Origin: Escherichia coli 042
Lineage (GTDB): Bacteria > Pseudomonadota > Gammaproteobacteria > Enterobacterales > Enterobacteriaceae
Direction: 5' to 3' (one strand)
DNA: 64,000 nt
NCBI RefSeq assembly: GCF_000027125.1
Contig: NC_017626.1
The notes beneath the pieces are model-generated. The model was not told where the DNA came from. It searched no databases and was given only the letters and a program-made list of their open reading frames with translations. The position numbers and the translations under genes are program-made. This document shows, in pieces, positions 5,705 to 5,830 of this stretch. Position 1 is the first letter of the stretch, and the number at the start of each line of letters is the position of its first letter.

Positions 5705-5830
5705 ATGAGAGGCTCTTCACATCGCCGCTTCATTATTCGTCCAGAAAAAGATGATTATCCCTTAAGTGATGAAATGGAAAATGTGGTTTCCTTGGGATTT
5801 AGCAATAATAAGGATTTGCAGAATGTTTAA
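5705..5830 (+). pseudogene. 41-codon chimeric remnant: ybhN 3-prime-end copy fused to the 3-prime end of a gene-A homologue
   Basis: ATG 5705 directly after the gene C stop; the last 26 codons (DDYPLSDEMENVVSLGFSNNKDLQNV) align with the gene A C-terminus (13 of 26 aa identical by hand). Confidence 0.35.
5715..5734. repeat. Duplicate of the ybhN 3-prime terminus (att-like direct repeat)
   Basis: cttcacatcgccgcttcatt at 5715-5734 is identical to 6046-6065 (reverse-strand end of ybhN, ...NEAAM stop); 24 of 25 nt when extended. Confidence 0.65.

Follow-up and report, generated by a model that had tools for sequence, protein, structure and literature searches.

A truncated second allele of a DUF3969 gene as the probable recombination scar of a putative orphan-immunity islet in Escherichia coli 042

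The stretch of Escherichia coli 042 DNA analyzed here (64,000 nucleotides [nt] of contig NC_017626.1; called the window below) carries a 2-kb islet at positions 4080 to 6045, between the convergent core genes ybhM and ybhN. The islet holds four genes, A to D, all on the plus strand, and an open reading frame (ORF) of 41 codons at 5705 to 5830, between C and D. The last 85 nt of this ORF (5746 to 5830) are very likely the 3′ stump of A′, a second allele of the DUF3969 gene A, left by the splice of two islet haplotypes, i.e., a recombination scar in an orphan-immunity islet. The remnant was identical in 83/89 nt (93%) to the 3′ end of the A′ gene of E. coli 88-3493 and in 80/89 nt to that of FDAARGOS_943, compared with 59/89 nt for gene A, its own neighbor. 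The protein tail encoded by the remnant, …KDDYPLSDEMENVVSLGFSNNKDLQNV, matched FDAARGOS_943 A′ to the final residue (BLASTP E = 1e-13). The remnant together with gene D was 92.8% identical over 319 nt to 88-3493, whereas D beside the remnant was 82 to 83% identical to D of genomes carrying the A-type allele. The features of the islet and its borders are as follows.

3349-4062, plus strand: ybhM, Bax inhibitor-1/YccA family, left core flank, with a nonsense codon here
4080-4107, plus strand: promoter candidate TTTAGA-16-TATAAT, top sigma-70-like match (10/12), upstream of gene A
4121-4498, plus strand: gene A, 125 amino acids (aa), DUF3969, A-type allele; predicted orphan immunity protein
4414-4479, plus strand: stretch of gene A homologous to the remnant, reference copy of the repeat
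4480-5714, plus strand: B-C cassette, with the last 6 codons and stop of A, then gene B and gene C
4587-5045, plus strand: gene B, 152 aa, no family; protein identical to CBG33700 of E. coli 042
5105-5704, plus strand: gene C, 199 aa, SUKH-4 by Pfam match
5705-5830, plus strand: chimeric 41-codon ORF, MRGSSHRRFIIRPEKDDYPLSDEMENVVSLGFSNNKDLQNV; its ATG abuts the C stop; antisense ybhN end, then the probable A′ tail
5715-5745, antisense here: displaced copy of the ybhN 3′ end, stop and last ~9 codons
5746-5830, plus strand: probable A′ remnant, 5′-truncated, 85 nt; last ~27 codons and stop of the A′ DUF3969 allele
5823-6044, plus strand: gene D, 73 aa, Escherichia-restricted; clusters with CBG33702 of E. 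coli 042
6048-7004, minus strand: ybhN, intact, right core flank; 3′ end (6046-6073) duplicated in the displaced copy

The remnant and the A′ allele

The initial annotation had described the ORF as a degenerate second copy of the gene A 3′ end, fused to a duplicate of the ybhN end. The 41-codon ORF was present in the ORF list, and the ybhN-end duplicate was found as 5715 to 5742 matching 6046 to 6073 in 26 of 28 nt. The hand counts of 13/26 identical residues and of 45 identical nt among the first 60 were reproduced by an exact recount at the codon-aligned positions 4418-4498 and 5750-5830. The coordinates given earlier (4420-4498 and 5749-5830) were 1 to 2 nt off. In a repeat search, 4414-4479 and 5746-5811 formed the longest direct repeat of the region (66 nt, 77% identity), with the two copies in the same orientation and 1,332 nt apart. 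The homology had been said to end exactly at the stop codons. The similarity in fact stops at 4479 and 5811, about six codons earlier, and the final 21 nt before both stops are identical at just 8 positions. The equal distance of 26 codons to both stops is a coincidence. At the protein level, the remnant aligns only with residues 99 to 125 of A and A′.

When window positions 5700 to 6060 were searched against complete E. coli genomes, 71 genomes matched. In 33 of the 71, at least 80% of the query was covered and the match started at 5742 or 5746, right after the ybhN-end copy. The match corresponds to the 3′ end of a gene that is full length there (118 to 125 aa) and annotated in RefSeq as "DUF3969 family protein". 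In 88-3493, FDAARGOS_943, PT62 and 2014C-3075, the DUF3969 gene is followed by D (73 to 75 aa) and then by ybhN, at the same locus; in one strain the DUF3969 gene at this locus is split by IS2. The DUF3969-D pair was also present at the locus in E. albertii, E. fergusonii and Escherichia sp. MOD1-EC7003, in E. albertii with a gene for a 232- to 237-aa membrane protein on its 5′ side. Full-length A′ homologues upstream of D, which the initial annotation had proposed to look for, are thus found in E. coli, E. fergusonii and E. albertii.

With A as the query, a DUF3969 gene was detectable in 38 of the 5,426 complete E. coli genomes in RefSeq, 19 of A-type and 19 of A′-type. Over the whole gene, the nucleotide identity to window A was 90 to 96% for the A-type and 74 to 75% for the A′-type. 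The synonymous divergence (dS) between A and A′ was about 0.9, roughly as large as that to E. albertii, and the ratio of nonsynonymous to synonymous divergence (dN/dS) was 0.11 to 0.33, indicating that both classes are old and under selection. The earlier view that a divergent family member has been reduced to a remnant is therefore kept insofar as the piece is the remnant of a DUF3969 gene, and is revised in that A′ is an allele of A and not a distant paralogue.

In PT62, 2014C-3075 and E. fergusonii, D follows an A-type gene. The DUF3969 gene of MOD1-EC7003 is a mosaic, with an A-type 5′ part (263/289 nt) and an A′-type 3′ part (78/89 nt). On the metagenomic contig L029, an A′-type 5′ part is followed by a divergent B-C pair.

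A further sequence, P0030 (133 aa, on a 3.8-kb ENA contig), combines residues 16 to 73 of an A-type DUF3969 protein (81% identity) with a Fic/DOC segment (Pfam E = 4e-6). This is a further rearrangement of the DUF3969 gene or else an assembly chimera.

Assembly of the composite and history of the site

In the multi-genome alignment, gene A of the window tracks the A-D genomes (PT62, 2014C-3075 and E. fergusonii) to about 4479. The A-type gene of those genomes ends in …TTTAGAAATTAA, while the window departs into …AACAACGGGCATGATGTGCATTAA and gene B. The B-C cassette thus begins within the last codons of A, whose final six codons are cassette-derived. The right boundary of the cassette is 2 nt past the stop of a ybhN gene. 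The similarity between A and the remnant stops at 4479/5811 because the last codons of A come from the cassette and the remnant continues into D-linked sequence.

One complete E. coli genome, GF4-3, has ybhM, a 232-aa gene, A, B and C, followed directly by ybhN, with no D. The window is colinear with GF4-3 from 4114 to 5739 at 92.4% identity, through the ybhN-end copy, and the same 25 nt of the GF4-3 ybhN end also align with the real ybhN end of the window, from 6046 onward. Compared with GF4-3, the window has 331 extra nt (the A′ stump and D), bracketed by the two ybhN-end copies. Compared with 88-3493, A-B-C and ~30 nt of ybhN replace the first ~95 codons of A′. At the ybhM-A junction, the window has the sequence of 2014C-3075 and E. 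fergusonii, bar one substitution.

The window thus carries the two haplotypes one after the other, with ybhM, A, B, C and the first ~30 nt of ybhN joined to A′ from codon ~96, D and ybhN, and this splice explains the duplicated ybhN end. On the simplest history, the composite would have been built in a single recombination event. A homologous crossover in one core flank, on the ybhM side or the ybhN side, would have been combined with an illegitimate joint at 5739 to 5746, i.e., homology-facilitated illegitimate recombination. By this route, A-B-C and the donor ybhN start would have been joined to codon ~96 of the resident A′, with D and the genuine ybhN behind it. In the joint zone, ybhN-derived …CATTATTCGTCCAG meets AAAAAGATGATTATCCC of A′, and a CA/CAG microhomology is possible. 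The two substitutions in the ybhN-end copy were considered as a clue to the recipient haplotype and were uninformative.

At least six architectures of the ybhM/ybhN site were found. The site is empty in K-12, where ybhM and ybhN are 35 nt apart, and in most E. coli. It is occupied by DUF3969-D; by D alone, with the DUF3969 gene deleted and ~25 nt 5′ of D kept (contig L021); by A-D-C on one E. albertii contig (L028), where a SUKH-4 cassette replaces the last 36 nt of D and abuts the ybhN end; by A-B-C (GF4-3); or by the composite of the window. The K-12 spacer (strain DH1, 2364 to 2398) ends in AAAGAACTTAACTAAAC beside the ybhN stop, which corresponds to the last codons and stop of D (~18 nt; window 6028 to 6047). 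Since the D end is kept in K-12 and the pair is present in three species, the empty site is taken to be a deletion and DUF3969-D-ybhN to be the state that preceded it. D is the ancestral partner of the DUF3969 gene.

The exact D protein was indexed in 248 blocks. Twenty-four composite contigs, including the chromosomes CP057690.1 and LR134246.1, were read and had the same gene order; the composite is stably inherited. It was not found in the 5,426 RefSeq complete genomes, though it is present in other complete genomes, so its frequency in E. coli is not estimable from that collection. Two composite sublineages (contigs L014 to L016 versus the window, 3322 to 8245) were 2 to 2.4% apart in ybhN and clsB and 0 to 0.4% apart across the islet, and the ybhN copy and remnant were identical between them (0/126 differences). 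This hints that the islet or its flanks moved by homologous recombination between the sublineages.

Three other origins of the remnant were weighed against a splice of two haplotypes. A chance resemblance of AT-rich, low-complexity stretches that share no homology, the outcome that the initial annotation named as counting against its claim, would fit the base composition of the islet (26 to 31% G+C over most of its length, higher toward the ybhN end, with about 55% in the flanks) and the many imperfect repeats of 14 to 24 nt that arise in it by chance (families D3 to D19). Its probability is nevertheless negligible. The local alignment score of the remnant with gene A was 57, against 22.0 ± 2.5 for mononucleotide shuffles and 22.9 ± 2.8, with a maximum of 34, for 500 dinucleotide-preserving shuffles of the remnant compared with the whole AT-rich islet (z = 12.4), and pairwise BLASTP of the 41-aa ORF with the gene A protein gave E = 6e-9. 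The similarity thus exceeds the AT-rich background, and the match of the remnant and D to genomes with the full-length gene is decisive. A tandem or segmental duplication of the window's own gene A 3′ end, followed by divergence, would explain the direct orientation and the spacing of the copies, and the ybhN end is duplicated too. It is highly improbable, since the remnant is nearer to A′ of other strains than to gene A, the distance between A and A′ is even along the whole gene, and the D beside the remnant is of the A′-linked type. Direct repeats of 28 nt at a gene 3′ end are what gene-end-targeting integrases leave, and the site is clearly a hot spot, so site-specific integration, with the ybhN 3′ end as attachment site and its copies as attL and attR, also deserves mention. 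However, the DNA between the repeats (the remnant and D, 303 nt) is ancestral and not incoming, the left edge of the islet has no third repeat, and one side of the joint lies within coding sequence, at a position that differs from those of the other rearrangements (L021, L028 and GF4-3). No integrase ORF, transposase ORF or tRNA was found within the islet, nor any tRNA in 1 to 12000 or Rfam hit at E ≤ 1 over 3000 to 6300. An integration event is very improbable as well.

The stump, gene D and the chimeric ORF

In the AlphaFold model of A (predicted local distance difference test score, 92.8), a helical bundle is formed and the strand of residues 2 to 7 pairs with the C-terminal strand of residues 112 to 117. 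Of this fold, the stump covers no more than the last short helix and the C-terminal strand, so that it cannot fold as the domain, and it is presumably inactive as a protein because the helical bundle is missing. The stump does hold the Shine-Dalgarno-like AAGGA of D (5810 to 5814, 8 nt before the ATG), and its stop overlaps the D start (ATGTTTAA). It was probably kept passively: as it carries the ribosome-binding site of D and the stop/start overlap, its deletion would silence D. The independent deletion of the DUF3969 gene in contig L021 spares ~25 nt 5′ of D.

The homologues of D formed 20 clusters, all from Escherichia or Shigella, with dN/dS of 0.11 to 0.57; D is under purifying selection. 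It is probably read from the A-B-C transcript, as no terminator-like site was found anywhere in 3900 to 6200 and the top promoter-like site lies 5′ of A. The D frame can be extended 5′ across the remnant (window 5766 to 6044), to GTG at 5766 or ATG at 5781, and upstream starts are used in CBG33702 (87 aa) and in some RefSeq entries (92 aa). The 73-aa form, with its start at 5823, is favored by the homologues from other species.

The chimeric 41-codon ORF is probably not a functional protein. A role as a small protein, or as a coupling ORF by which ribosomes pass from C on to D, would agree with its position, as its ATG abuts the C stop (TAAATG) and its stop overlaps the D ATG. The ORF is also intact, with 0 differences in 126 nt across all composite-bearing contigs examined, and one annotation pipeline calls it as a gene (contig L015). 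This conservation is uninformative, however, because the whole islet is near-invariant there (0 to 0.4% divergence). The first 14 codons are antisense ybhN, and an open frame over 14 codons is not improbable by chance. The A′ tail amounts to the final helix and strand, and the N-terminal strand that would be its partner is missing. Among 15 billion proteins, the ORF forms a one-member cluster. Function of this ORF is thus unlikely.

DUF3969, toxin tips and the putative orphan-immunity islet

Gene A matched Pfam DUF3969 (PF13108, E = 3e-16), with residues 10 to 91 aligned to model positions 4 to 85 of 106. The full-length A′ genes carry DUF3969 in the RefSeq annotation and PF13108 in precomputed hits. 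The remnant and the 41-aa ORF have no DUF3969 domain, as they align C-terminal to the stretch matched by the hidden Markov model. Gene C matched Pfam SUKH-4 (PF14435, E = 6.9e-6; residues 55 to 153 on model positions 78 to 173 of 179), a protein identical to C is named "SUKH-4 family immunity protein" by NCBI, and the E. albertii homologue of C has an unmarked precomputed PF14435 hit. An immunity function is predicted for SUKH proteins, and supernumerary copies have been proposed to protect against "non-self" toxins (PMC3113570). Pfam gave no match for B or D, and scans of A, B, C, D, the 232-aa protein and A′ with NCBIfam, PADLOC and PHROGs gave nothing significant. Sequence searches of the PDB with A, C, the DUF3969 profile and the toxin domain described below returned nothing meaningful, and tblastn of B against plasmids gave no match.

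DUF3969 was not mentioned in the literature searched. At E ≤ 0.001 the family numbered 255 representatives, most of them stand-alone proteins of 105 to 125 aa; rare fusions joined it to Barstar, CdiI_4, DUF4176, pentapeptide repeats, HEAT repeats or a cold-shock domain. Genome contexts were gathered with the DUF3969 alignment and by exact look-up. At 10 loci in two phyla, the DUF3969 gene starts −18 to +20 nt from the stop of a gene for CdiA, an orphan CdiA C-terminal region (CdiA-CT) or Rhs, in the same orientation. These loci are as follows.

Proteus cibi: DUF3969 after CdiA, with the GKNAVENN motif and a 246-aa tip
Entomohabitans and Gilliamella: DUF3969 after orphan CdiA-CT
Bacillota metagenome-assembled genome: DUF3969 after Rhs with YD repeats and RHS core
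E. coli, Paenibacillus and Saccharibacillus: DUF3969 after orphan Rhs tips
Clostridium amylolyticum, Ruminiclostridium and Enterobacteriaceae bacterium B14: DUF3969 after similar proteins

All ten upstream proteins end in one domain of ~88 aa, with pairwise identities of 50 to 81% (BLASTP E, 1e-19 to 1e-58) and the consensus IKNxYxSIKxAPxYPxGF...ESGxWxKVYKDGYDxxGxxxSxHYFxSxSGxVFxVKxK. Its carriers are CdiA in Proteobacteria and Rhs in Proteobacteria and Firmicutes. The copies lie on contigs L032 (5700 to 5995), L034 (1800 to 2064), L037, L046, L049, L057, L058, L033, L055 and L023/L024. The domain matched nothing in Pfam, NCBIfam or the PDB, and no clear neighbor of its predicted fold was found. 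A Pfam search of the E. coli orphan Rhs tip returned no toxin family; as this copy is frame-broken, that result carries slightly less weight over the first third of the domain. By tblastn, the toxin domain gave nothing below E = 1.6 in the 64-kb window.

DUF3969 is read as an immunity family on account of its position directly behind shared toxin tips, the classic signature of a cognate pair, and A and A′ appear to be orphan copies, since no such toxin is found in the window. A and C, and possibly B and D, may be orphan immunity proteins kept against the toxins of competitors, as their family context suggests. On balance we favor, with reservation, the view that DUF3969 is the cognate immunity family of an undescribed ~88-aa CdiA/Rhs toxin domain. 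Orphans of this family would have occupied the ybhM/ybhN site since before the split of E. coli, E. fergusonii and E. albertii, as two alleles shuffled by intragenic and illegitimate recombination, of which the remnant would be a trace. The cassette shuffling of polymorphic toxin or immunity loci that the initial annotation had proposed is borne out on the immunity side by the SUKH-4 gene C, the DUF3969 fusions and the ten toxin loci. The toxin side is not, since there is no toxin gene here and the immunity genes are orphans.

Several points weigh against this overall interpretation of the scar and the islet. The SUKH-4 match of gene C is modest and covers about half of the model, and B and D are without a recognizable family. 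The Escherichia A and A′ proteins are 36 to 43% identical to the toxin-linked DUF3969 members, and their own link to a toxin is predicted. The argument from retention of the ribosome-binding site draws on two cases. The candidate promoter is a consensus match, and the number of promoter-like sites found by the consensus scan in the islet was not above the shuffle expectation, i.e., no better than chance. At the joint, microhomology is at most 2 to 3 nt, and alignment of the ybhN part takes two small indels, which leaves the precise breakpoint uncertain. The order and direction of events may be told in two ways, with GF4-3-like DNA entering an A′-D chromosome or the reverse. The GF4-3 state could also have arisen by deletion between the two 28-nt ybhN-end repeats of the composite.

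Orphan cdiA-CT/cdiI and rhs-CT/rhsI modules, reportedly described by Poole et al. in 2011 as displaced toxin-immunity cassettes 3′ of contact-dependent growth inhibition (CDI) and Rhs loci, resemble the islet in several respects. The incoming cassette brings a piece of a conserved neighbor gene, the resident cassette is displaced and left as a truncated fragment with an intact downstream gene, and alternative alleles are arrayed in one orientation. DUF3969 itself was found in such orphan arrays elsewhere (contigs L023, L034, L037, L046 and L057). Unlike those modules, the window has no toxin gene, CdiA or Rhs core, and the cut gene is of immunity type and truncated at its 5′ end. The duplicated "homology handle" is here the end of the unrelated housekeeping gene ybhN, on the opposite strand, and, in place of crossing over within conserved pretoxin sequence, an illegitimate joint appears to have formed.

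Poly-immunity arrays, composed of SUKH genes and further immunity genes (Zhang, Iyer & Aravind 2011, PMC3113570), and the orphan immunity clusters of gut Bacteroidales that resemble acquired interbacterial defense (AID) clusters (bioRxiv 10.1101/2025.05.03.651265) likewise place unrelated immunity-type genes side by side without a toxin, with strain-variable presence and allele mosaicism. In contrast to these arrays, the islet is very small (two to four genes), is fixed between core genes and has no mobile-element genes. Two of its four genes are without a recognizable family, and protection is here predicted only.

Homology-facilitated illegitimate recombination is said to have been described by de Vries and Wackernagel in 2002 for natural transformation in Acinetobacter and Streptococcus. 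As in that process, one side of the composite is colinear with a core-flank anchor and the other joint appears to lie in unrelated sequence with at most short microhomology; unlike in that transformation system, the event in the window is reconstructed from sequence. The stump also resembles ordinary gene remnants at E. coli indel hot spots, in being a nonfunctional, 5′-truncated piece inherited vertically in a lineage. It differs from these in that both parental haplotypes can be named and that it overlaps the translation start region of a selected gene.

The scar is ordinary as a kind, one more case of a cassette displaced at an immunity locus. As a pseudogene fragment it is of little weight, yet it is unusually legible, because both parental haplotypes survive in other strains. 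It would document one route by which small immunity islets are rebuilt, in which a foreign haplotype with a piece of the flanking core gene is spliced in, the resident gene is beheaded and the downstream partner stays expressed, as is presumed for D. The by-product may be more useful: a testable proposal that DUF3969 provides the immunity partner for a conserved, unannotated toxin domain, which is a modest new inference. The gap between ybhM and ybhN would thereby be a recurrent orphan-immunity site in Escherichia, including the enteroaggregative reference strain 042.

The genes around the window start are moaA-E, ybhL and ybhM, and those beyond the islet are ybhN, clsB, ybhP, ybhQ and ybhRS. 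The core flank at 7004 to 11000 was 95 to 99% identical to essentially all 5,426 complete E. coli genomes, with a top match of 99.1%. ybhM is inactivated in the window by a TTA-to-TAA change at 3647 (codon 3646 to 3648; Leu100 to stop), which results in two ORFs, and is intact (TTA, 237 aa) in sibling genomes with the same islet (contigs L009 to L011). In GF4-3 and E. albertii, the unannotated 232-aa protein encoded 5′ of the DUF3969 gene is a further paralogue of YbhM (40% identity, E = 5e-46). The number of tandem Bax inhibitor-1/YccA-type genes after ybhL is strain dependent, from one to four (L001, 2191 to 4400; L017, 2417 to 4570; L005, 1320 to 2807).

In some Escherichia, a sulfatase gene is inserted at the site (contigs L019 to L022). 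E. albertii has no ybhN, clsB or ybhP at the locus (L017, 5222 to 5603; L028, 2149 to 2471) and retains a short ybhN-end remnant, TCACCGCGCTGCTTCATTCTGCCCC, before ybhQ. On contig L029, a repetitive extragenic palindromic (REP) element follows right after gene C, at the contig end. In PT62, a G+C-rich palindromic block of ~350 bp, resembling REP elements or bacterial interspersed mosaic elements (BIME), lies between ybhM and the DUF3969 gene (L005, about 2835 to 3180).

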